From contig JBAZZC010000006.1 in NCBI GenBank assembly GCA_041658985.1, positions 2,369-66,368 of the forward strand: a DNA stretch of 64,000 nucleotides. The letters run 5' to 3'. Numbering within the stretch: the stretch's first letter is position 1; each line of letters starts with the position of its first letter. Position numbers and translations under genes: made by a program. The stretch comes from Minisyncoccota bacterium (GTDB taxonomy: Bacteria; Patescibacteriota; Minisyncoccia; Phycocordibacterales; DATDWN01). The notes under the pieces are model-generated. The model did no database searches. It was not told the DNA's origin and saw nothing but the letters and a program-made list of their open reading frames with translations. Shown here one piece after another: positions 2,865-63,142 of this stretch.

Positions 2865-3005
2865 ATTTATCCGCACACTAATTTTGCCATTGTTTTCAAT
2901 ATTCTGCAACAGAACCCTGTATAAATTCGACTTGAACTGTTTGCGTCAAAAAAATAGAAAGCCATGTTGAAAACCAGAATGATGGCAAATTTAGTGTTCG
3001 GATAT
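2865..3005. repeat. Paired-arm inverted-repeat element, family 1 copy G
   Basis: Left arm TTTATCCGCACACTAATTTTGCCATTGTTTT pairs with right arm AATGATGGCAAATTTAGTGTTCGGATA across a ~75-nt AT-rich spacer. It lies between the DedA stop and the small membrane ORF start, 7 nt from the ATG. Confidence 0.6.
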
Positions 3006-3021
3006 ACCAAATAAAGAAAAA

Positions 3022-6951: not shown

Positions 6952-7099
6952 ATTAATCCGAACACTAACTTTAGCATCGTTGCCTAGTGTTTTCGTATAT
7001 TATTACCCAATTTGATATTTACTATAGAATAATACATAGTTAATACTAAATAACAAGCAACAGTAAAAACACAATGCTAAAGTTAGTGTGCGGATAAAT
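6952..7099. repeat. Paired-arm inverted-repeat element, family 1 copy A (between divergent truB and hisS)
   Basis: Arms TTAATCCGAACACTAACTTTAGCATCGTTG and CAATGCTAAAGTTAGTGTGCGGATAAAT. The right arm ends 1 nt before the hisS ATG. The spacer is AT-rich with outward promoter-like hexamers. Confidence 0.65.
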
Positions 7100-9370: not shown

Positions 9371-9776
9371 ATGATTCAACAAGATTTTAATTTTTATTTA
9401 TCCCTAAGGTTGTGCCTTTAAAATTATTGTTTTTATAAACGAAAAAGAGGCGGCGGGGACTCTGCTGGCAGTCCCCACCCCTCTCGTGTTCCTTGGCCAG
9501 AGTGCCTCGCTCCCTCGAGAGCTACTGGCCGTCAATCCACACATCTGACCGTGTCGTGTCGCTACTGGCCAGTCGAGGTCGCCGTCGGCGCCATCTTGGT
9601 GGTTGTCGCCGCCGCCGTCGTCCTGGTCTTCGCCGTGCGTCGCTTCGTCGCCGTGGTCATTTCCTGCACCTCCTGTGTCCCGGAAAGAGTTGACGTGGAT
9701 GACGCGACTCCGCGATGCCATCCTCTATTAGCATAACAAAACAGTATTTACTGTGTCAATAGTTATCCACAGCACC

Positions 9777-26461: not shown

Positions 26462-26604
26462 ATAAATCCGAACACCAACTTTGACATCGTTACTTCTGTC
26501 CCAAGTTTTGCTAACCAGACTTATCTATGTGTCCATCAATACTTAATGGGTCATATCATTAAAGTAACAATGGGACAATGTCAAAGTTGGTGTGCGGATA
26601 AAAA
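26462..26604. repeat. Paired-arm inverted-repeat element, family 1 copy B (rpoB upstream/leader region)
   Basis: Arms AATCCGAACACCAACTTTGACATCGTTACTTCTGTCCCA and TGGGACAATGTCAAAGTTGGTGTGCGGATAAAA. The arm-specific variants CCAACTTTGAC co-vary in both arms. Confidence 0.65.
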
Positions 26605-26648: not shown

Positions 26649-26811
26649 CTGTTATTAATTTTTTAGCGATTTTGTCGCAAAATAGTGTAAGCGGACCAAT
26701 TAACCTTGTAATCCCTTCACTTTCCACCAAGACTCAATCGTATGAAGTTAAAACTGAGTATACGTCAAGAGCATATTATCTGTCAAGTAAAGTCAACAGA
26801 GTTATCCACAG

Positions 26812-26922
26812 TTTATCCAGGCACCAAGTAGACAAGAAAAACACACCCTTACTAGCCACTTCTGTACATCGATGAACACAGATTAATTAATACTAATGAG
26901 TTATACTTGTCTACTTGGTGCC
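26812..26922. repeat. Family-2 inverted-repeat element, module 1 (arms TTTATCCAGGCACCAAGTAGACAAG)
   Basis: 25-bp perfect inverted arms across a ~60-nt spacer that contains ACTAGCCACTTCTGTACATCGATGAACA. Confidence 0.6.
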
Positions 26923-26949
26923 TGGATGAATTCACAGTGGGTTTGACAC

Positions 26950-27070
26950 CTACATCCAGGCACTAATTGAATGAGTGTAATTCCTTGATATTAATCTATT
27001 TATGTTCATCGATGTACAGAAGTGGCTAGTAGAGATATTTTCTTCTCATTCAATTAGTGCCTGGATAAAT
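26950..27070. repeat. Family-2 inverted-repeat element, module 2 (arms ATCCAGGCACTAATTGAATGAG), an inverted and diverged copy of module 1
   Basis: Its spacer carries the reverse complement of the same 30-nt core. The arms are perfect within this copy but differ from module 1 after ATCCAGGCAC. Confidence 0.6.
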
Positions 27071-27327
27071 TAGTCTGGAATTTCAAAAATCTTCCTCTTG
27101 GACGTTGCCCCAGAAACCAACCTTACAAGAGATGGAGCAATATCAAAATATTTTGCCAATACTTTAATAATGGCTTCGTTGGCTTTTCCTCCTACAGGCA
27201 CCTCTTTTACTGAAACTTTGTATTCTACCATCCCCTGTCCACCTTTATCAAAATCAAGTGTTGGCTGTCCGACACGTTCCACCACTTCAATCTTTGCTTT
27301 TGGTTTAGCTATAACTACAATCCTCAT
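27070..27327 (-). CDS. DUF167/YggU-family small protein
   Basis: 85 aa with a YggU-like fold signature (...EGKANEAIIKVLAKYF...). Overlaps the lexA stop. Confidence 0.55.
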   Translation of the reverse strand: MRIVVIAKPKAKIEVVERVGQPTLDFDKGGQGMVEYKVSVKEVPVGGKANEAIIKVLAKYFDIAPSLVRLVSGATSKRKIFEIPD

Positions 27328-27328
27328 T

Positions 27329-27907
27329 TTAATATTTTCGGATTACTCCGCGTACTATCGCTGCTACCTTCAGGTCATACTGTGGATAAATTGGTGAATA
27401 GTTTTTATTGGCCGGTTTTAGATAAACTAATCCCCCCTTCTTTTTAAAATACTTCATAGTCCAACCCCCGTCAACTTCTGCAATAACAATATCTCCATCC
27501 TTTGGGTCTCCCTTTCTTTCCACCAGAACCAAGTCACCCTCTTTTATACCCTCATCTATCATTGAGTCACCTTTTACTTCTAATAAATAAGTTCCCTCTT
27601 TATTACCCACAAGATATTCATCTAAGCTCAAAGAATCAAATATGTTGGCATCAACAGAGGTTGGAATACCCGCCTCAACCAAACCAAGAAGTGGAATCTC
27701 TCCAAAAATTTTCATGGGGGTCAGTCTCCCGCTTGAGTCCTTATCAACCACCTCATCCTCAACCAACTTATTGATTAATTTGTAAACAGCATTTTTTGAC
27801 CTGAATCCAACAAGAGACATTATTTCCTTGTACCCAGGCATTCTCCGATTTTTTTGATAGAAAGAGATAATTTTATTTTTTTGTGAGATGTATTTTTCTT
27901 CAGACAT
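27329..27907 (-). CDS. lexA: LexA repressor (S24 peptidase)
   Basis: N-terminal wHTH, cleavage site near AG, and the catalytic Ser and Lys in GDSM...KGDPKDGDIVIAEVDGGWTMKYFKK. Confidence 0.85.
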   Translation of the reverse strand: MSEEKYISQKNKIISFYQKNRRMPGYKEIMSLVGFRSKNAVYKLINKLVEDEVVDKDSSGRLTPMKIFGEIPLLGLVEAGIPTSVDANIFDSLSLDEYLVGNKEGTYLLEVKGDSMIDEGIKEGDLVLVERKGDPKDGDIVIAEVDGGWTMKYFKKKGGLVYLKPANKNYSPIYPQYDLKVAAIVRGVIRKY

Positions 27908-27912
27908 ACTAG

Positions 27913-28055
27913 TTTATCCGCACACTAACTCTGGTATCGTTGCCTCGTCTCCAGATTTAGTTGTGGTTATTTTTATTTGCGTTTATAAAAGTAATAAATT
28001 TAATATTAATTATGGCAACACTGGAGACAATACCAGAGTTAGTGTTCGGATTAAT
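27913..28055. repeat. Paired-arm inverted-repeat element, family 1 copy C (between the small ORF and lexA)
   Basis: Arms TTTATCCGCACACTAACTCTGGTATCGTTGCCTCGTCTCCAG and CTGGAGACAATACCAGAGTTAGTGTTCGGATTAAT (~40 bp). The left arm ends 5 nt before the lexA ATG. Confidence 0.65.
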
Positions 28056-28255
28056 TAAACTGTACTAAATGCTCTCCCAAACCAATTATTAGCAGACCTA
28101 TTTTCTTTCTTAACTTCTGCCAATCTGGATAAAATAAATCTATGCCTTTTTGCTTCCCTTGCATACGATAAACCTTTTATGATTTTGTGGTCAATAACAT
28201 CATTTAAAACTTCCAATTCACTTCTCAATATTTTTTCTAAATTTTGTTTACTCAT
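28055..28255 (-). CDS. Hypothetical 66-aa basic protein, first gene of the lexA operon (likely SOS-controlled)
   Basis: The ORF lies 36 nt downstream of the LexA box and co-directional with lexA. No family recognised. Confidence 0.4.
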   Translation of the reverse strand: MSKQNLEKILRSELEVLNDVIDHKIIKGLSYAREAKRHRFILSRLAEVKKENRSANNWFGRAFSTV

Positions 28256-28290
28256 GATGTTTGTTATTAAAATTTATATATAGATAGTAT

Positions 28291-28306
28291 AGTGAACTAC
28301 GGTTCA
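28291..28306. promoter_or_regulatory. LexA (SOS) box, Cheo-type GTGAAC-N4-GTTCAC
   Basis: Perfect 6+4+6 dyad GTGAACTACGGTTCAC matching the Gram-positive-type GAAC-N4-GTTC consensus. It sits between the divergent lexA operon and the IS transposase. Confidence 0.6.
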
Positions 28307-28339
28307 CCCGTCAAGTAGGTAGATGTGGATAACTCCACG

Positions 28340-29340
28340 CATATCCCTTGACAACATAATTACAGGGTATATACTTAGGGTATGAAAACAAACAAATACA
28401 CAATACAAGACTTAAAAAACCAGTTCCCCACAGACGAGGTTTGTGCGGAATACATCTTTGACTCCCTACATAGCCGTAAATGCTCATGTGGTGGCGAATA
28501 CAAGCAATTAAAGGGTCGTAGACAGTTTCAATGCTCTAAATGTAGGTATCAGGTAGCCCCGACTGTTAACACCATATTTCACAAATCACCCACCCCACTA
28601 ACTCTCTGGTTTCATGCTTTGTTTGTTTTCTCTACTTCAAAGTCTGGTCTTTCTGCAAAGAACCTAGAAAGCCAAATTGGTGTAACCTATAAATGTGCTT
28701 GGAGGATGTTAAACCAGATTAAGAAGGCACTAAAACAAAGTGGCGATAAATTAAAAGGTGTTGTAGAAACTGACGCTGGATATTTTGGTGGTGTAAAAAA
28801 CGCAGGTAGAAACAATGAGAACTTAAGTGAATCTATGAGAGCTAAAGCTGTTGTTTTAATAGCAGTAGAAAGAAATGGAAACATTAAAGCTAAAATAAGC
28901 GAAAACGCCACAGCAGACAGCCTTGAAAAGTTTGTGAGAGATAGTGTAGAAGAAAAGGCAATATTACTATCTGATAACGCAAGGGGTTTTAACAGATTAA
29001 ACAAAAACTATAGGCATTTCTCAGTCAATCACAGTAAAGGCGAATATGTGAGATACAAAACTCATGTAAACACAGTAGAGACATTCATTTCTCACCTAAA
29101 ACGAAGTATCGGGGGGACATTTAAGAGCGTTTCAAAGAAACACCTGCAGTCTTACCTAGACGCTTTTGTCTTTCATTATAACAATCGGCACAACGACAGA
29201 GAGAGGTTTTCTTCTTTGCTCGGTGCTGTATTACAGTCTTAAGGGTAAATAGGAAACTTGACTTTTTCATATAAATAGTATAAACATTATAACTTATACA
29301 CAGGTATTTTGCATCCGTAGGTAATAGTGATATAATTACA
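28340..29340 (+). mobile_element. Approximate extent of the IS1595-family insertion (ends not resolved)
   Basis: A ~20-nt imperfect direct repeat, AGTAGGTAGATGTGGATAA and CGTAGGTAATAGTGATATAA, flanks the transposase. The right flank resembles a family-1 arm. No clean terminal inverted repeat or target-site duplication was found. Confidence 0.3.
28382..29242 (+). CDS. IS1595-family (ISXO2-like) transposase
   Basis: N-terminal zinc ribbon (CSCGG...CSKCRY) plus a DDE domain. TTGACA-16-TATACT promoter ends 6 nt before the ATG, suggesting a leaderless mRNA. Confidence 0.8.
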   Translation: MKTNKYTIQDLKNQFPTDEVCAEYIFDSLHSRKCSCGGEYKQLKGRRQFQCSKCRYQVAPTVNTIFHKSPTPLTLWFHALFVFSTSKSGLSAKNLESQIGVTYKCAWRMLNQIKKALKQSGDKLKGVVETDAGYFGGVKNAGRNNENLSESMRAKAVVLIAVERNGNIKAKISENATADSLEKFVRDSVEEKAILLSDNARGFNRLNKNYRHFSVNHSKGEYVRYKTHVNTVETFISHLKRSIGGTFKSVSKKHLQSYLDAFVFHYNNRHNDRERFSSLLGAVLQS

Positions 29341-29394
29341 AAAGTTCGCAAATTAATGCTTTTTGTCAAGGCAAGATGAGATGAGGGGAATATT

Positions 29395-29484
29395 TGCGGA
29401 GGATACAGGGATTGAACCTGTGTAACGGTATTAAGCGTGTTGTCGGTGTCGTAGACCGATGCATTACCACTCTGCCAATCCTCC
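29395..29484 (-). tRNA. tRNA gene: anticodon loop CUACGAC gives ACG (Arg) tentatively, with an atypically long ~21-nt variable region
   Basis: Reverse complement has GGAGGAT acceptor stem, AGTGGTAA D-loop, TCGGT/ACCGA anticodon stem, ACAGG-TTCAATC-CCTGT T-arm and ATCCTCC 3' acceptor. No encoded CCA. Confidence 0.5.
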
Positions 29485-44615: not shown

Positions 44616-46868
44616 TTATTTGGCTATTGTCACTGCTTGGTCAAAAGCCACAGACAAAAGCTTAGACCCGCCACCCATACCCATAGTTACACCATATAGA
44701 ACTCCGGCGCGAGACATTGTTTCGCGGTTGTGGGTAATTAAAATTAGTTGAGAATATTTTGAAAGATTTTCTATCATATCTCCGTATTTTTTTGAATTTG
44801 CTTCATCCAGCGCTGCGTCTGTTTCATCTAGAATAATAAACGGTGGTGGATTAACTTGAGAAACAGCAAAAAGTAAGGCGATGGAGGTCAGGGCCCTTTC
44901 GCCACCAGAGAGCATCATAAGTCCTTTTATTTTTTTCTTTGGAAGATTCACCTCTATATCTATTCCTTCCTCTACTTCCTCTGGAACTGTATCCTCCAGA
45001 GTTGGGTCTTCCTCGAGAAGCAAATCATCTACTTCTTTCTTTTTGTGCTTCGGCGGTGCCACGACGGAAAGCCTTGCTTCTCCCCCCCCAAACATAACAG
45101 CAAAATATTCTTTAAACTGAATGTTTATTTTATCAACTCCATTTTTAAACTCTGTTGAAAGTCGCACATCTAAATCAGCAATTAGTTCTGTCAGAGACTG
45201 TGCTGATTTTTCCAAATCAGTTAATTCTTTTTCCAAAAAGGCATCCCTTTCACTCACTTCCGTATATTCCTTTAAAACGTCAGTACCTTCTGTCCCTCCA
45301 GCGTCCTCAAGACGGATTTTTGTTTTCTCTATTTTGCGACGACGTTCTTCCTGTGCACTTCTTGGTTCGTCAAAATCAAATAAAAGAGACTGAAACTGTA
45401 AGACGTGAGTGCCAAGCATCATACCAAGTTCCGTCAGTTCTCTTTTGAAATCCTCACGAACCAGACGAAGTGTCTCTTCCTCTGCTTTTAAACTGTGTAG
45501 TTTGGAGCGAACTTCTTGCGATTCGGACATAATTCGAAAAACCGCTTTCTCAGCATCACGATTTGAATCTTTTTCTTTCTCTATTTTATTTTGCAGGGCT
45601 GTATATTGGTTAGTTAATCCATTTTCTTTATTCTTTATCTCTTCCAGAGACTCTTCAATTTGCCTCTTTGAGTTTTTAAGATTTTCAATATCTTTGGTGG
45701 CCTCAGAAAGAAGTGAGCTGTCAACCTTTTCCTTGTTTTTGTCCACAAATCTCGAGAGCAATTCCCCAACCTCGTCCAGTGCCGTCAGTAACTTCTCCAA
45801 ACTGCCATCTCTTTTTGCCTCTTTTATTTTTTCTTCAATTTGAGAAGATAGTGTTTCCACAGAAACTAAAGTTACGGTCTTGTGCTCTAAGGAATGTGCT
45901 ATTTCCTCCTGTTTTTTGACCATCCTGACAAGTGAAGAAATCTCGCCATCAAGTTTGCCGGCCTCACGAAACAAACCATCTTTTTCTTCACGAATTTTTT
46001 GTAATTCTCTCTCCAGTGTAATAAGTTCTTCCGATGTGGCATCTTTATGTTTACTACTATCTAAAATATGTTTAGCCTCTTCTAGTTCTGTATTGAGCTC
46101 TTTTTCTTTTTCTAGCAATGGCAACTTTTGACTTTCGACTTTTGACTTTTGACTACTAATATATTCTTCTTCTCGTCTGCAATATTCAAGAGCATCTTTT
46201 TGTAATTCATCGCGAAGCTCAATTGATTTTTGAACTTTTTCAACTTGTTTTTTCAGGAAGCGAATGTGTGGCATTATTTCTCGACGAAGTGATTGGGTTT
46301 GAGTAATGTTTTCTCTTGTCTTTTCCAACTTTCTTTCACTTTCTTGTTTTTTATATTGATACATCTTGAGACCCAAGGCGTCCTCTATCATTGATTTTCT
46401 TTCTTTTATATTTGCATTGAGAATTCTGTCCGCTTCACCTTGGGAAATAATATGATGCCCCGATGAGCCAATATGGGCAGAAGCCAAAAGTTCCACCACA
46501 TCACGAAGGCGCACCTGTGAGCCATTTATTATGTACTCATTTACCGAATCACGATGAACTACTCGTTCAATGGTGACTGTTTCATAATCAATCGGGAGAA
46601 ATTTACTACTATTATCAAAGATGATTTTTACACTAGCTCTGTTTGCCCTCGGTGTATCATTTGAGCCATTCCAGATTAAATCTTCACCCTTTTTTCCACG
46701 AAGAGACTTAATGGATTGTTCACCCAAAACGAAACTAAAGGCTTCAGCCACATTTGACTTACCAGAACCATTTGGCCCAACAATAGCCGAAATTTTAGAC
46801 GTGAACTGAAGCTCGCTCTTTTTAGCAAAGGATTTAAACCCGTTTAGTTCAATACTTTTTAAATACAT
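44616..46868 (-). CDS. smc: Short SMC-like chromosome-segregation ATPase (750 aa, coiled coil, no recognisable hinge)
   Basis: Walker A GPNGSGKSN and C-terminal signature LSGGERALTSIALLFA with Walker B ILDETDAALD. Confidence 0.75.
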   Translation of the reverse strand: MYLKSIELNGFKSFAKKSELQFTSKISAIVGPNGSGKSNVAEAFSFVLGEQSIKSLRGKKGEDLIWNGSNDTPRANRASVKIIFDNSSKFLPIDYETVTIERVVHRDSVNEYIINGSQVRLRDVVELLASAHIGSSGHHIISQGEADRILNANIKERKSMIEDALGLKMYQYKKQESERKLEKTRENITQTQSLRREIMPHIRFLKKQVEKVQKSIELRDELQKDALEYCRREEEYISSQKSKVESQKLPLLEKEKELNTELEEAKHILDSSKHKDATSEELITLERELQKIREEKDGLFREAGKLDGEISSLVRMVKKQEEIAHSLEHKTVTLVSVETLSSQIEEKIKEAKRDGSLEKLLTALDEVGELLSRFVDKNKEKVDSSLLSEATKDIENLKNSKRQIEESLEEIKNKENGLTNQYTALQNKIEKEKDSNRDAEKAVFRIMSESQEVRSKLHSLKAEEETLRLVREDFKRELTELGMMLGTHVLQFQSLLFDFDEPRSAQEERRRKIEKTKIRLEDAGGTEGTDVLKEYTEVSERDAFLEKELTDLEKSAQSLTELIADLDVRLSTEFKNGVDKINIQFKEYFAVMFGGGEARLSVVAPPKHKKKEVDDLLLEEDPTLEDTVPEEVEEGIDIEVNLPKKKIKGLMMLSGGERALTSIALLFAVSQVNPPPFIILDETDAALDEANSKKYGDMIENLSKYSQLILITHNRETMSRAGVLYGVTMGMGGGSKLLSVAFDQAVTIAK

Positions 46869-48483: not shown

Positions 48484-49392
48484 CTACTTCTTCAGTAGTA
48501 TATTTATCGCCTTGGTAATTAGTGGCAATATATCATTATAGAAGTTTAAGTCAATTATGTCGGCTAGCTTAAACCATTTAGCATCATCAAGCCCACCCTT
48601 GGCTTCTGGATGTAAATCTTGGTATTTTGCCTCAGCTAAAAAATACGTAACGTGTTTTCTTATCTTGCCTTTTTCTGGATGATAGGTTGGGTATTCATTT
48701 TCACCAAGTTTTTCTTTTATTTTTATATCAAGCCCCAACTCCTCTTTTATTTCTCGAATAGTTCCGTTCTCAACACTTTCATTTTTTGTCTCTTCCGAAT
48801 CACCAATTTTCCCTTTTGATAAAGTCCAGTGACCAAAGACATCGTGAACTAAAGCAAGATAAATATCTTCTCCATCCTTGGCATAAACAACCGCACCACC
48901 CAAATGTTGCATGGGAATATTTGTCGGCATATGCACTTTCCTTTTGTCTTTTGATGTTTCTTCTTTACCGGGCTCTCCCAGTTCTTTGTAAACCGCACCC
49001 AAAACTCCATTAACAAATTTACTTGAGGTCTCTCCACCAAAGGCTTTAGACAGTTCAATGGCCTCGTTTATAGCAACCTTTGGAGGAACTTCCCCTCTAT
49101 CAGAGAACAACAGTTCGTATAACCCAATACGAAGAATATTTCTGTCTATAATACTTATTTTATCTATTGGCCAGTCAGGAGCTGCCTTTTCTATAATCAA
49201 ATCTATATCTTTTTGTTTTTCCAAAACACCGTCTAGTAAATTCTCCATAAATGAAAAATCTCCGTGACCCGGAGCAAATTCCTGTACATTGCGCTTAAAA
49301 ATAGTAGGTATTTCTTTTTTATCTTTTGAGGCAAAGTCCCACTCAAAGAGTGTTTGTAATACTATACTTCTGGAAAGGTGCCTGTTTGCCAT
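48484..49392 (-). CDS. NusB antitermination factor fused to a C-terminal NUDIX hydrolase
   Basis: NusB fold at residues 1-135. The Nudix box GKIGDSEETKNESVENGTIREIKEELGL lies in the C-terminal half. Single uninterrupted 302-aa ORF. Confidence 0.7.
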   Translation of the reverse strand: MANRHLSRSIVLQTLFEWDFASKDKKEIPTIFKRNVQEFAPGHGDFSFMENLLDGVLEKQKDIDLIIEKAAPDWPIDKISIIDRNILRIGLYELLFSDRGEVPPKVAINEAIELSKAFGGETSSKFVNGVLGAVYKELGEPGKEETSKDKRKVHMPTNIPMQHLGGAVVYAKDGEDIYLALVHDVFGHWTLSKGKIGDSEETKNESVENGTIREIKEELGLDIKIKEKLGENEYPTYHPEKGKIRKHVTYFLAEAKYQDLHPEAKGGLDDAKWFKLADIIDLNFYNDILPLITKAINILLKK

Positions 49393-58077: not shown

Positions 58078-60180
58078 TTAGATATCAATATTGGCGCGAG
58101 TGGCATTAGACTGGATAAATGACTTCCTGGCTGGAACGTCAGTTCCCATGAGGACATCAAAAACCTTGTCTGCAGAAACAGTATCGTCAACTACAACTTG
58201 TTTTAGGATTCTTCTTGCTGGGTCCATTGTTGTCTCCCACAATTCTTCCGAGTTCATTTCTCCAAGACCTTTGTAACGCTGAATATTTATTCGTCCCGAT
58301 GCCGATGTTGCTTTCTTTGATTGCTTTCCCTCTTTTTCCGATTCATCCTCCTCTAGTTCACTTTCAACCTCGGCACTGGTATTGTTTTCAATCTCGTCAA
58401 TTTCGGCAATAGGACGACCAACAATTTTTGCTTTTTCTTCATCAGAATATGCGTAAAACACTTCCTTACCTTTTTTTATTTTATAAAGTGGCGGTTGTGC
58501 AATATAAACAAACCCACCATCAATAAGCGGTCTGAAATATCTGTAAAGCAAAGTCAAAATAAGTGTGCGAATATGCGCACCATCAACATCAGCATCCGTT
58601 GCTATGATTATTTTGTGATAGCGAAGTTTAGAAACATCAAATGTGTCGCCTATTGCCGTCCCCAAAGCAATAACTAAATTCCTGATTTGCTCTGATTCAA
58701 GAAGTCTATCCAGTCTTGCTCTCTCAATATTTAAAATTTTTCCTCGGAGTGGAAGTATGGCCTGTGTTCGTCTGTCTCGCCCAGTCTTTGCCGTACCACC
58801 AGCAGAATCTCCTTCCACAATAAACAATTCTGAATCTTCTGCGCTTTTACTTTGACAATCCGCAAGTTTTCCTGGAAGGGTCATGCCTTCCAAAGCGCCC
58901 TTTCGTAAAACAGAATCTTTGGCTGCCTTTGCGGCTTTTCTGGCCTTCAGGGCAATAACTACCTTATTGATTATAGCCTTAGCATCATCGGGATTTTCTT
59001 CTAGAAAATAGGTAAAGGCTTCGGAAAAAACTGTATTAACAGAACTTTGTGCCTCCACAGAGCCTAATTTTGCCTTTGTTTGACCCTCAAATTGAACTTC
59101 ACGAAGCATAACTGAAATAACTGCAGTCAAGCCTTCCAGCACGTCTTCCCCTGTAAAATTATCCTCCGAATCTTTAATTAAATTATTTTTTCTACCATAT
59201 GTATTTAATGTTCTAGTCAGTGCTGTTTTAAAACCAGTAACATGTGTTCCGCCTTCGGAGTTATAAATATTATTCGCAAAAGGTAAAAGCCTACAAGAAA
59301 TATCATCTACATATTGAAGAGATATTTCCACTGATTCATATTCGTTGGTTTTCTTTTCTATGTAAAAAACATTTTTATGAATCGGTTTTTGGTCACTGTT
59401 GTAAAATTTTACAAGAGACAGAAGACCCCCCTCAAAATAAAACGTCATTGAAGGAATCTCTAGTCCCAGTTCAGTTATATTAAAAACTTCATCTTCTTTT
59501 ATTTTTCCCGTAAAGCCTCTGGCATCATTTACTACAATTCTCAAACCCTTAACAAGATATGCCTGTTGACGAAGATGTTCTACGATATTATTAAAATCAA
59601 ACTCAACAATTGGAAAAATTGATTTATCTGGCTCAAATATAACAATCGTTCCGTTTTGCTTAGTCGTTCCGATTTTTTTTACAGCCGCTTTCTTTTTTCC
59701 CTGAGAATATTCTTGCATGTAAATTCCTCCATCTTTATATACTGTAACTTTACAATAAATAGAAAGTGCATTTACAACAGAAGCTCCCACACCGTGAAGA
59801 CCTCCAGAGACCTTATAGCCACCATCCTCACCCCCAAACTTACCTCCGGCGTGAAGTGTGGTCATAATTGTCTCAAGTGCAGAAACTTTCGTCTGTTTAT
59901 GAATGTCCACCGGAATACCACGACCGTTGTCTGTAACACGCACACGATTTCCGGGTAAAAGAGTAACTTCAATGTGGTTGGCAAAACCTCCCATCGCCTC
60001 GTCGCGAGAGTTGTCAAATATCTCCGTTATAAGGTGATGAAGTCCATCGGGCCCTGTTGTACCTATGTACATACCTGGGCGCTTCCTGACGGGCTCTAGG
60101 CCCTCTAAAATGGTGATTGCATCTGCCCCGTAAGAGTCTGTCGTAGCTTTCGCCTTATATGTCTTTGGGTTCTTGGCCAT
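58078..60180 (-). CDS. gyrB: DNA gyrase subunit B
   Basis: GHKL ATPase (HAGGKFGG), TOPRIM (EGDSAGG) and a GyrB C-terminal tail. 700 aa. Confidence 0.95.
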   Translation of the reverse strand: MAKNPKTYKAKATTDSYGADAITILEGLEPVRKRPGMYIGTTGPDGLHHLITEIFDNSRDEAMGGFANHIEVTLLPGNRVRVTDNGRGIPVDIHKQTKVSALETIMTTLHAGGKFGGEDGGYKVSGGLHGVGASVVNALSIYCKVTVYKDGGIYMQEYSQGKKKAAVKKIGTTKQNGTIVIFEPDKSIFPIVEFDFNNIVEHLRQQAYLVKGLRIVVNDARGFTGKIKEDEVFNITELGLEIPSMTFYFEGGLLSLVKFYNSDQKPIHKNVFYIEKKTNEYESVEISLQYVDDISCRLLPFANNIYNSEGGTHVTGFKTALTRTLNTYGRKNNLIKDSEDNFTGEDVLEGLTAVISVMLREVQFEGQTKAKLGSVEAQSSVNTVFSEAFTYFLEENPDDAKAIINKVVIALKARKAAKAAKDSVLRKGALEGMTLPGKLADCQSKSAEDSELFIVEGDSAGGTAKTGRDRRTQAILPLRGKILNIERARLDRLLESEQIRNLVIALGTAIGDTFDVSKLRYHKIIIATDADVDGAHIRTLILTLLYRYFRPLIDGGFVYIAQPPLYKIKKGKEVFYAYSDEEKAKIVGRPIAEIDEIENNTSAEVESELEEDESEKEGKQSKKATSASGRINIQRYKGLGEMNSEELWETTMDPARRILKQVVVDDTVSADKVFDVLMGTDVPARKSFIQSNATRANIDI

Positions 60181-60424: not shown

Positions 60425-60570
60425 TTTACCCGCTACACTAACTTTACCATTGTTTTTGTATTCTAATTCAAAATGTTGTTGAATAGTGTTTTTTTCATGA
60501 GACTACTGAAAATAATAGTAGTATTCTGTTAGAAAAACAGAATGATGGTAAAGTTAGTGTGCGGGTTTAC
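60425..60570. repeat. Paired-arm inverted-repeat element, family 1 copy D (between divergent gyrB and pheS)
   Basis: Arms TTTACCCGCTACACTAACTTTACCATTG and AATGATGGTAAAGTTAGTGTGCGGGTTTAC. The arm-specific variants CCCGC and TTTACCAT co-vary. Confidence 0.6.
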
Positions 60571-61753: not shown

Positions 61754-63001
61754 ATGCCTGATATTTCAAATATAATTACATATATATTTTTATTTATATC
61801 TCTTTACTTTGAGGTCTTTATCCTTATTACTTACTTTGAAAACCGTCTCGAAATAAAAAGTGAGGAAAATTTTATAACCCTCGGAGTAAAAAAATATCCA
61901 ACAGTTACAATAATAGTTCCGTGTTGGAATGAAGAATTTACTGTTTCAAAAACTATACATTCTTTGCTCTCTCTGGATTATCCAAAAAGTAAGCTGAAAA
62001 TAATGGTTATAGATGATGGCTCCACAGACAAAACTTGGGAGAAAATCCAAAAGTTCAAAAATAATTCGCAGGTTGAAATATACACCAAGACCAATGGGGG
62101 TAAATACACCGCATTAAACTTTGGAATCTCAAAAATGAGTAGTGATTTGGTGGGTTGTCTCGACGCGGATTCATATGTTCATAAAGATGCACTAAAAAAT
62201 ATTGTGGTTTATTTTCAAGACAAAGAAACAATGGCCGTTGCTCCATCGGTAAGGTTGTGGCAACCAAAAGGCCCTCTTCAACTTTTGCAAAAAGTAGACT
62301 ATGCTTTTGGAATATTTAACAGAAAGATGTTTCATTATTTGCAAGCTGTCTATATTACACCAGGACCGTTCTCCATATTCAGACTTGATGTCTTCAAAAA
62401 ACTCGGAGGGTACAGACACGCTCATAATACAGAAGATATAGAGATTGCCCTCAGAATGCAGAAGAACGGTTACAAAATTGTTCACGCTCATAATGCTATG
62501 GTTTATACAGTCGCTCCAAACAGTTTAAGAAAATTACTCAAACAAAGGACCCGATGGGTTTATGGTTTTATTAAAAACGCTGGTGATTACAGACAAATGT
62601 TTTTCAAAAGAAAATACGGAAATCTCGGAGTTTTTATTTTGCCTATGGCTGCGATTTCAATTATTTCTATCTTAAGTATTGCCAGTATCTCAATCATTAG
62701 TGTATTAAATCTTTTATCGAACAAGTACTTGGAAATACAAGCTGTGGGATTAAGTTTTCATTGGCCATTTAGCAGGTTTGAGTGGTTTTATGTAAACACA
62801 GAAATCATCTCAATTGTTGCAATAATAACCACTGTCGGAACAATAACAATGATAGTAATCTCAAAAAGAATGGCTGAAGGAAAATTCAATCTTGGAATGG
62901 ACTTGATATATTTTCTAACATTGTATATGTTTATAGCGCCCTTGTGGATTGGTAAAGCAGTCTACAATGTCATATTCAGCATTAAAGCCTCCTGGAGATA
63001 A
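61754..63001 (+). CDS. Family-2 glycosyltransferase (membrane-embedded, cellulose/chitin-synthase-like topology)
   Basis: GT-A motifs (DDGSTD, DAD, QRTRW-like QxxRW) with N-terminal and C-terminal TM segments. Confidence 0.75.
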   Translation: MPDISNIITYIFLFISLYFEVFILITYFENRLEIKSEENFITLGVKKYPTVTIIVPCWNEEFTVSKTIHSLLSLDYPKSKLKIMVIDDGSTDKTWEKIQKFKNNSQVEIYTKTNGGKYTALNFGISKMSSDLVGCLDADSYVHKDALKNIVVYFQDKETMAVAPSVRLWQPKGPLQLLQKVDYAFGIFNRKMFHYLQAVYITPGPFSIFRLDVFKKLGGYRHAHNTEDIEIALRMQKNGYKIVHAHNAMVYTVAPNSLRKLLKQRTRWVYGFIKNAGDYRQMFFKRKYGNLGVFILPMAAISIISILSIASISIISVLNLLSNKYLEIQAVGLSFHWPFSRFEWFYVNTEIISIVAIITTVGTITMIVISKRMAEGKFNLGMDLIYFLTLYMFIAPLWIGKAVYNVIFSIKASWR

Positions 63002-63142
63002 ATCCGCACACTAACTCTAGCATTGTCTTTTTTGTTGCAGGGGTTAGTATCAAAATAATAGATTTTATTAATATAATAGTAGATAGCATTACTAAGTTTG
63101 GAAAGACGATGCAACGATGCCAGAGTTAGTGTGCGGATAAAA
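63000..63142. repeat. Paired-arm inverted-repeat element, family 1 copy E (between the GT2 stop and the next gene's start)
   Basis: Arms AAATCCGCACACTAACTCTAGCATTGTC and GATGCCAGAGTTAGTGTGCGGATAAAAC. The left arm starts at the GT2 stop codon and the right arm ends 1 nt before the ATG at 63144. Confidence 0.65.

Follow-up and report, generated by a model that had tools for sequence, protein, structure and literature searches.

How is the SOS repressor gene lexA controlled in a genome of the candidate phyla radiation, and does this control reach the transposase gene that is read in the opposite direction next to it? We examined this in a 64-kb stretch of contig JBAZZC010000006.1 from a Minisyncoccota bacterium (the whole stretch is called the window below), where an operon of a small gene, lexA and a DUF167 gene lies back to back with an insertion sequence (IS) of the IS1595 family. 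The LexA protein encoded here is identical to one annotated "Candidatus Paceibacterota", and the nearest species are Zambryskibacteria. A first-pass annotation of the window had proposed that LexA controls its own operon through a Cheo-type box and that the same box may couple the transposase to DNA damage. For comparison, we used the lexA loci of 80 species genomes (Zambryskibacteria and other Paceibacteria), in which LexA is 63-92% identical, and located promoters by a consensus scan for a -35 hexamer, spacer and -10 hexamer. The best explanation of the locus as a whole, which we hold to be highly probable, is an autoregulated lexA operon of a Zambryskibacteria/Paceibacteria genome, with a conserved small protein, a helically phased promoter motif and two recent insertions.

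A predicted palindromic operator fills the spacer of the lexA promoter

The GAAC-N4-GTTC core is an established LexA motif of Firmicutes and Actinobacteria. Upstream of the lexA operon, we found this core within a perfect 6+4+6 palindrome, which covers 16 of the 17 spacer bases of a minus-strand promoter (coordinates of all features are collected in Table 1). The dyad reported by the first-pass annotation is thus real and unique in the window, although it runs from 28292 to 28307 and not from 28291 to 28306, and its predicted overlap with the lexA operon promoter was borne out by the consensus scan. The exact sequence GTGAAC-N4-GTTCAC is present once in the 64 kb, and none of 100 dinucleotide shuffles of the window yielded a copy. 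The looser GAAC-N4-GTTC occurs three times against 1.0 expected, and the other two copies are intragenic, at 49105 in a nusB-like open reading frame (ORF) and at 58134 in gyrB. The window encodes an ordinary sigma-70.

The exact palindrome was found upstream of lexA in 78 of the 80 species loci; one of the remaining two has a dyad with a single mismatch and the other comes without upstream sequence. The orthologous loci share a common frame consisting of TTGACn, 1-2 nt, the dyad, 0-1 nt and then the -10, which reads TATAAT in 33 loci and TATACT in 32. The same arrangement of -35, dyad and -10 is seen in a distant branch of LexA (loci L169-L173), which we retrieved via the small protein described below. 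Outside the lexA promoter, the exact 16-mer is absent from ~510 kb of related loci. Since the twelve arm positions of the dyad are invariant among the orthologous promoters and the four centre positions are free to vary, the dyad is best read as a protein-binding site and not as an RNA stem. We also considered an RNA terminator, which is ruled out by the 6-bp stem, the absence of a T-run and arms that are invariant instead of covarying. Autoregulation of LexA through a Cheo-type box, as proposed in the first-pass annotation, is strongly supported by this comparative sequence evidence, with the same promoter arrangement recurring in 78 of 80 loci. Systems of this kind have been described before.

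The protein that would bind this site has the features expected of a self-cleaving repressor. It scores 120.3 bits against the NCBIfam equivalog TIGR00498 (cut-off 110.95), with residues 16-191 covered, and matches PF00717 at 1.9e-27. Its best solved relatives are the LexA proteins of T. maritima and E. coli, both aligned over the full length, and residues A79-G80, S115 and K152 align with A84-G85, S119 and K156 of E. coli LexA, which form the cleavage site and the Ser-Lys dyad.

In Bacillus subtilis, the Cheo box of lexA (dinR) reads CGAAC-N4-GTTCG. The locus described here shares with the Gram-positive Cheo-box systems the GAAC-N4-GTTC core, an operator placed over the lexA promoter, and a repressor with a winged helix, an S24 domain, an Ala-Gly cleavage site and a Ser-Lys dyad. 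It differs from them in three respects: the flanks are fixed as GT and AC, which gives a 16-bp site GTGAAC...GTTCAC; the operator sits exactly in the spacer between -35 and -10 in essentially every species; and lexA comes second in its operon, after a conserved gene for a small protein. A 2017 study by Sanchez-Osuna, Barbe and Erill (Environ Microbiol) is said to have described a LexA network in Patescibacteria with a Gram-positive-like LexA motif, and our locus shares with it the superphylum and a LexA-controlled network. This work on the Patescibacteria SOS network is cited in PMC8565304 (reference 9) and PMC7739468.

A conserved small gene precedes lexA

In each of the 80 species loci, a homologue of the first cistron of the operon, orf66, immediately precedes lexA as an ORF of 62-82 aa. 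The family consensus is MSKxxLEKxLRxELxxLNxxIDxKIIKGLSYxREARRHKFLL, in which N18, I21, D22, G28, Y31 and H38 are invariant. Conservation of the protein reaches down to 35% identity, and pairwise differences at codon positions 1, 2 and 3 amount to 0.40, 0.29 and 0.59. AlphaFold2 models the protein, which is basic, as a two-helix hairpin (helices 3-27 and 32-60) with a predicted local distance difference test (pLDDT) score of 84.7. A profile search returned 313 clusters among 1.84 billion representatives, all of them small proteins, and the named members are called "hypothetical protein" throughout and come from Parcubacteria or Nomurabacteria. A longer subfamily carries a conserved basic tail, KSPVRRSLxRG, that ends in a short hydrophobic stretch.

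The first-pass annotation had treated orf66 as an upstream leader ORF. In its strict form, this explanation reduces orf66 to a leader peptide or regulatory upstream ORF, whose translation sets lexA expression and whose product is functionless. It draws on the junction of the two genes, where, in most species, the orf66 stop overlaps the lexA ATG or is separated from it by 0-10 nt (median 4 nt across orthologues, with frequent overlap) and neither gene has a Shine-Dalgarno sequence, such that lexA translation plausibly needs the ribosomes that have read orf66. On the other hand, a functionless product does not fit amino-acid conservation down to 35% identity with invariant residues, the excess of differences at third codon positions over second positions, the confident two-helix model, or a family of 313 clusters that includes a longer subfamily with the basic C-terminal motif KSPVRR. 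We consider the strict leader explanation very improbable. Judging from its conserved protein sequence, invariant residues and coding-type substitutions, orf66 is a conserved protein-coding gene and not a leader peptide. Translational coupling is a separate matter: since the orf66 stop lies ~4 nt from the lexA ATG and no Shine-Dalgarno sequence is present, coupling of orf66 and lexA is likely in most species. In the closest relatives (loci L003-L008), the last codons of the small ORF (..FSII stop, TTTTCTATAATATAA) form a TATAAT 8-10 nt before the lexA ATG, either as a candidate internal promoter from which a leaderless lexA mRNA could start or simply as a result of AT-rich codons.

Small SOS genes linked to lexA are known from other bacteria, including sulA in the Pseudomonas lexA-sulA operon and the genes for YneA, SosA, ChiZ and DivS, which are divergent from lexA in Firmicutes and Actinobacteria. 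With these, orf66 shares its small size, its linkage to lexA and its position behind a LexA operator. Unlike them, it lies upstream of lexA in one operon, to which it would be translationally coupled, and it shows no relationship to them in sequence or fold, no transmembrane segment and no LysM domain. No family or structure match was found to the SOS cell-division inhibitors SulA, YneA, SosA and SidA, a profile search of the PDB gave no informative match, and Foldseek against the PDB returned only generic helical or coiled-coil hairpins, such as the arm of seryl-tRNA synthetase. The only hydrophobic segment is a short C-terminus, below transmembrane length. By analogy with the other small genes linked to lexA, the orf66 product would most probably act as an effector of the SOS response or modulate LexA or RecA.

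The small protein also enters a different explanation of the dyad, by which the palindrome would be bound not by LexA but by a different regulator, for example the orf66 product, and its likeness to a Cheo box would be coincidental. The protein is indeed basic, and its gene is always the first one behind the dyad. However, the core of the dyad is the one that LexA recognises in Firmicutes and Actinobacteria, the dyad is always accompanied by a bona fide lexA, and genes of the UmuD-like, Y-family polymerase and Cho-like types are found in operons that follow it. In addition, a two-helix hairpin is not known as a sequence-specific DNA-binding fold, and the fold search with orf66 returned generic coiled-coil hairpins. 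A non-LexA regulator is, in our estimate, extremely unlikely, and we retain LexA as the predicted ligand of the dyad.

A phased DnaA-box-like motif upstream of the -35

A second conserved element, TTATCCACA, lies upstream of the -35 hexamer. The sequence TTATCCACA is the DnaA-box consensus. Among the orthologous promoters, it is exact in 55 and has at most one mismatch in 77 of 78; its orientation is constant, and its distance from the dyad is -16, -25 or -34 nt, so that successive positions differ by roughly one helical turn. The gene upstream of lexA differs in identity and strand between loci, and the homology that close relatives share begins with the motif; together, these observations assign the motif to the lexA promoter. 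For the same reason, we ruled out that it is part of a conserved divergent gene. The motif would probably provide a second input to the promoter, from DnaA or another factor.

Elsewhere in the related loci, we found 29 exact copies of the motif, or 0.057 per kb. Twenty-three of these are inverted and located downstream of the lexA operon (for example in L006, L007 and L010), and behind most of the inverted copies, a few bases away, stands a conserved series of TTGAC-type hexamers that ends in a TATACT -10. The inverted copy of the window, at 26802-26810, heads the promoter ahead of rpoB, and this region (26757-26810, minus strand) has the form TGTGGATAA-N5-TTGACT..TTGACA..CTTGACGTATACT, a triple-TTGAC arrangement conserved in most such loci. 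A third exact TGTGGATAA is found within 9722-9771 on the minus strand, with the motif at 9763, 3 nt before the -35 TTGACA of a 105-aa ORF (9404-9721) that matches no Pfam family. Given the copy ahead of rpoB, the motif may be the mark of a small regulon with rpoBC and lexA among its members.

In E. coli, DnaA and LexA co-repress some SOS genes, namely uvrB, recN and dinJ (PMC6015884). The lexA promoter described here likewise combines a DnaA-box sequence and a LexA box in one promoter region, and differs in that the target is the lexA operon itself and in that the box, at which we infer DnaA binding, lies upstream of the -35, helically phased and with no overlap with the LexA box.

The IS1595 element carries its own promoter

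The transposase gene upstream of lexA matches NF033547 with 180.5 bits (cut-off 75) and PF12762 at 1.5e-32. By consensus scan, its promoter consists of TTGACA at 28348-28353, a 16-nt spacer and TATACT at 28370-28375, followed by the ATG at 28382. In relatives down to 40% identity (range 40-63%), TATCCCTTGAC(AACATAAT) is found ~40 nt before the transposase ATG and the -10 ends 6-9 nt before it. Since both the left-end sequence and the spacing of the -10 are kept, a promoter within the left end of the IS and a leaderless mRNA appear to be a family trait. The earlier placement of the ATG at the predicted transcription start agrees with this, and the gene is probably leaderless.

Relatives with both ends intact measure 0.97-1.03 kb and have ~25-nt inverted repeats and 8-bp duplications (for example GATAACCA, GATAGGCG and GAGAAGCG), in agreement with the 7-9 bp target duplications of the IS1016 group of the IS1595 family (PMC12561309). 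The family reference is ISfinder and Siguier et al. 2009, as cited in PMC12561309. The window element shares with the family a transposase with a DDE domain and an N-terminal Cys-rich region, and its relatives share the length of ~1 kb, the terminal inverted repeats and the 8-bp duplications. The window copy differs in its decayed right end: the right inverted repeat is only a 9-11-nt remnant (TTGTCAAGG, 29362-29372), no target duplication was found, and the copy looks decayed or rearranged. The right ends of the closest subgroup could not be aligned with the window copy, so its right boundary is approximate. We found no near-identical copy of the transposase elsewhere; the best relative is 63% identical, the gene is single-copy here and the exact protein is known from this context only.

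The second difference from the IS1595 family is that this subgroup markedly prefers TGTGGATAAC-like targets and is oriented such that its transposase gene points away from the motif. The IS starts at ~28336, 3 nt past the lexA promoter motif, and the window junction, TGTGGATAACTCCACGCATATCCC, matches the junction of a relative (L104) without a difference over 24 nt. Within 30 nt outside the left end of the IS, TGTGGATAAC-like DNA was present in 19 of 54 non-redundant relatives, compared to none of 141 control windows, and in several relatives the 8-bp duplication takes in part of the motif. These counts suggest that the IS group inserts at TGTGGATAAC-like sites in this orientation, and we express the candidate target preference as TGTG|GATAACNN. 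This IS is not present at lexA in any other species locus of the 80-locus set. Since the lexA promoter holds the motif that the IS targets, target preference explains the juxtaposition of the two.

These observations bear on whether DNA damage induces transposition, as the first-pass annotation had suggested. In this explanation, LexA at the dyad would repress the divergent transposase promoter as well. The two -35 hexamers do lie back to back, 33 bp apart, and RNA polymerase footprints would touch at ~28327-28334, so promoter interference may occur. However, the operator lies 28 nt outside the IS, it ends 40 nt before the transposase -35 (close to the ~42 nt given earlier), and its centre lies ~82 nt ahead of the transposase ATG. 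Both hexamers of the transposase promoter belong to the IS, as does the leaderless start, and all three are kept in relatives at unrelated contexts; the IS is at lexA in this genome only; its location is accounted for by target preference; and its right end is degenerate and without target duplication. SOS-coupled transposition is not supported, and we rate its probability as very low. The conserved left end of the IS, with a promoter of its own, and the target preference of the group account for the transposase better than control by LexA.

Some features near the element were recorded in passing. A one-mismatch copy of the upstream motif, TTATACACA, stands within 29294-29336 on the plus strand, 5 nt before a TTTGCA-17-TATAAT site with an extended TG. 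This promoter-like site faces the antisense side of a tRNA-Arg(ACG) gene and may be a relic or an outward promoter near the right end of the IS. The tRNA (29397-29484, minus strand) is 88 nt long and has an insertion of ~18 nt in the variable region, which is unusual for an Arg tRNA. A segment of ~2.7 kb that comprises the IS, the tRNA and four small ORFs is absent in close relatives between a tRNA_edit gene and the lexA promoter. On the same contig, ~5 kb left of the window (L087, 15452-20564), lies a putative integrated element with genes for a serine recombinase, an HTH_17 protein and a D12-class DNA methyltransferase.

A repeat element between orf66 and lexA

In the window, orf66 and lexA are separated by a hairpin element that, as RNA, folds at -51.9 kcal/mol (z = -6.1). 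It belongs to a family of six copies of ~145 nt (2866-3006, 6953-7098, 26463-26602, 27913-28054, 60426-60567 and 62999-63141), all intergenic, with conserved ends of ~30 nt (TTTATCCGCACACTAAC...GTTAGTGTGCGGATAAA) and variable centres. The ends resemble TTATCCACA plus one extra base. With MITE-like (miniature inverted-repeat transposable element) and REP-like (repetitive extragenic palindromic) repeats, this family shares dispersed non-coding copies and conserved terminal inverted repeats. An Rfam scan of the sequence matched only the tRNA, with the hairpins below threshold against miRNA models. In L009, the end of a related hairpin repeat abuts the lexA promoter motif.

The first-pass annotation had suggested that this hairpin modulates lexA translation, and it could indeed be read as having evolved to regulate the translation of lexA or the stability of its mRNA. 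Its stem is very stable, its 3' arm stops 8 nt before the lexA ATG, and the base of the stem brings the orf66 stop next to the lexA start. However, the gap between orf66 and lexA is at most 33 nt in 73 of 79 orthologous operons, which thus lack the element; the repeat is found in six copies at unrelated contexts of the window; unrelated hairpins have been inserted elsewhere in the same operon in other lineages; and the element has neither a terminator T-run nor a promoter-like site by consensus scan. An evolved regulator is unlikely, albeit somewhat less so than the other alternatives weighed above. Since the element is missing from most operons and belongs to a repeat family, we favour a recent insertion of a repeat element over a designed regulator. 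The element may affect lexA translation, but its position is peculiar to this genome and it is not a conserved regulator.

Comparable insertions were seen in other lineages. In L007, L018, L034, L042 and L048, the leader contains insertions of 159-175 nt with long hairpins, and all but the L042 insertion (four of five) share the core AATCCTCACC...GGCTCGAAT. Between the small ORF and lexA, L034, L057, L062, L065 and L072 contain insertions of 68-248 nt that fold more weakly. The non-coding parts of the lexA operon seem to tolerate or attract such insertions.

The operon ends differently between species. The gene behind lexA is variable, being DUF1905 in 13 loci and one of many singletons in others, while DUF167 is mostly found further downstream; the direct junction of lexA and DUF167 is unique to this genome among the 80 species loci. 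Of the operon first described here, the small ORF and lexA are therefore the conserved part, and the adjacency of lexA and DUF167, like the hairpin, is peculiar to this genome. Directly past the DUF167 stop lies a second, different long palindrome (26812-27069; 117-nt arms, 77% complementary), which has the exact TTATCCACA ahead of it at 26802.

Table 1. Positions of the features of the lexA locus in the window
Feature	Coordinates	Strand	Basis or remark
LexA operator (predicted), palindrome GTGAAC-TACG-GTTCAC = GTGAACTACGGTTCAC	28292..28307	none	6+4+6, perfect; core GAAC-N4-GTTC, Cheo-type
-35 hexamer TTGACG, orf66-lexA promoter	28309..28314	-	consensus scan; TTGAC-type at that position in most of 77 orthologous promoters scored
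-10 hexamer TATACT, orf66-lexA promoter	28286..28291	-	consensus scan; abuts dyad
Upstream promoter motif TTATCCACA	28324..28332	-	exact match to DnaA-box consensus; IS inserted beside it
orf66, 66 aa, first cistron, small helical-hairpin protein	28055..28255	-	conserved ORF
Hairpin repeat element, 147 nt, MITE-like, between orf66 and lexA	27908..28054	-	arms 27910-27940 and 28027-28057
lexA, 192 aa, winged-helix N-terminal domain and S24 autoprotease	27329..27907	-	TIGR00498, PF00717
DUF167 (YggU-like), last gene of the operon here, 1 nt past lexA stop	27070..27327	-	PF02594, TIGR00251
IS1595-family IS, ~1.04 kb	28336..29375	+	left end CACGCATATCCCTTGACAACATAAT carries -35; right boundary approximate and degenerate
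Transposase gene, 286 aa, probably leaderless	28382..29242	+	NF033547, PF12762

The reach of the operator and the weight of the evidence

Genes for recognised SOS functions stand behind the box in relatives. In the distant branch L169-L173, the operon behind the box runs on into genes for a Cho-like nuclease, a UmuD-like protein and a Y-family polymerase, and in L060 a Y-family polymerase gene follows 1 nt past lexA; the operator would thus govern recognised SOS functions in these relatives. No secondary operators were found ahead of the UmuD-like or Y-family polymerase genes in L169-L172.

Several results weigh against our explanation of the locus. We searched ~80 kb of this genome for the operator (the 64-kb window, with a matrix, and ~16 kb more of the contig, L085 and L087) and found no second operator; the upstream regions of dnaE, the UvrD/PD-(D/E)XK helicase-nuclease gene, gyrB, smc and pif1 are operator-free, and the next-best matrix site, at 46801, has two mismatches and lies within smc. 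A tblastn search for RecA and DnaA gave no match in the window or in the retrieved related loci. The N-terminal domain of LexA does not reach the threshold of PF01726 (LexA_DNA_bind) in a Pfam scan; on the other hand, the equivalog model and the PDB alignments span LexA residues 14-70, with GFRSKNAV opposite GFRSPNAA of E. coli. As for the function of orf66, the protein matches no Pfam or NCBIfam family, and 40 of its homologues match no Pfam family. Lastly, identity to the consensus is the sole ground for reading the upstream motif as a DnaA box, and the motif also stands, in reverse orientation, ahead of two further promoters, so it could be bound by another factor.

A model for the lexA operon

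With these points taken into account, we propose the following sequence of events. A LexA dimer on GTGAAC-N4-GTTCAC would repress the orf66-lexA promoter and, since the palindrome fills the spacer between -35 and -10, would shut out RNA polymerase. Following DNA damage, RecA would stimulate the self-cleavage of LexA at A79-G80 by means of S115 and K152, which would free the promoter. Upon this induction, orf66 and lexA, in this genome together with DUF167, would be transcribed and repression would be reset. The orf66 protein would be made alongside LexA and could act as an SOS effector or as a modulator of LexA or RecA, and the phased TTATCCACA would add the second input to the promoter from DnaA or another factor. 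Two recent insertions of mobile DNA would be superimposed on this system, namely the 147-nt hairpin and, upstream, the IS1595 element with its own promoter, sited by its preference for TGTGGATAAC-like targets.

A more far-reaching version of this model joins its parts: the lexA promoter would integrate DNA damage, sensed through LexA, with replication-initiator status, sensed through DnaA; the small protein would be the SOS effector or LexA/RecA modulator of the lineage, for example a brake on division or replication where SulA and YneA are lacking; and the IS1595 subgroup would home to DnaA boxes. We offer this combination tentatively and consider it doubtful as a whole.

Taken alone, the operator provides a well-footprinted example of textbook autoregulation from an uncultivated lineage. 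Three findings merit follow-up, namely the small protein kept with lexA, the promoter element that resembles a DnaA box and the choice of targets by the IS. If confirmed, an IS group that targets a promoter motif would give a simple account of juxtapositions of IS and promoters that could otherwise be over-read as regulation, and a DnaA-box sequence phased into the lexA promoter would suggest that replication initiation and the damage response communicate at the level of the master regulator itself. The orf66 proteins form an uncharacterised family tied to lexA in all species examined, over a large part of the candidate phyla radiation, and orf66, if confirmed, would be an obvious candidate for a missing SOS function in these tiny genomes.

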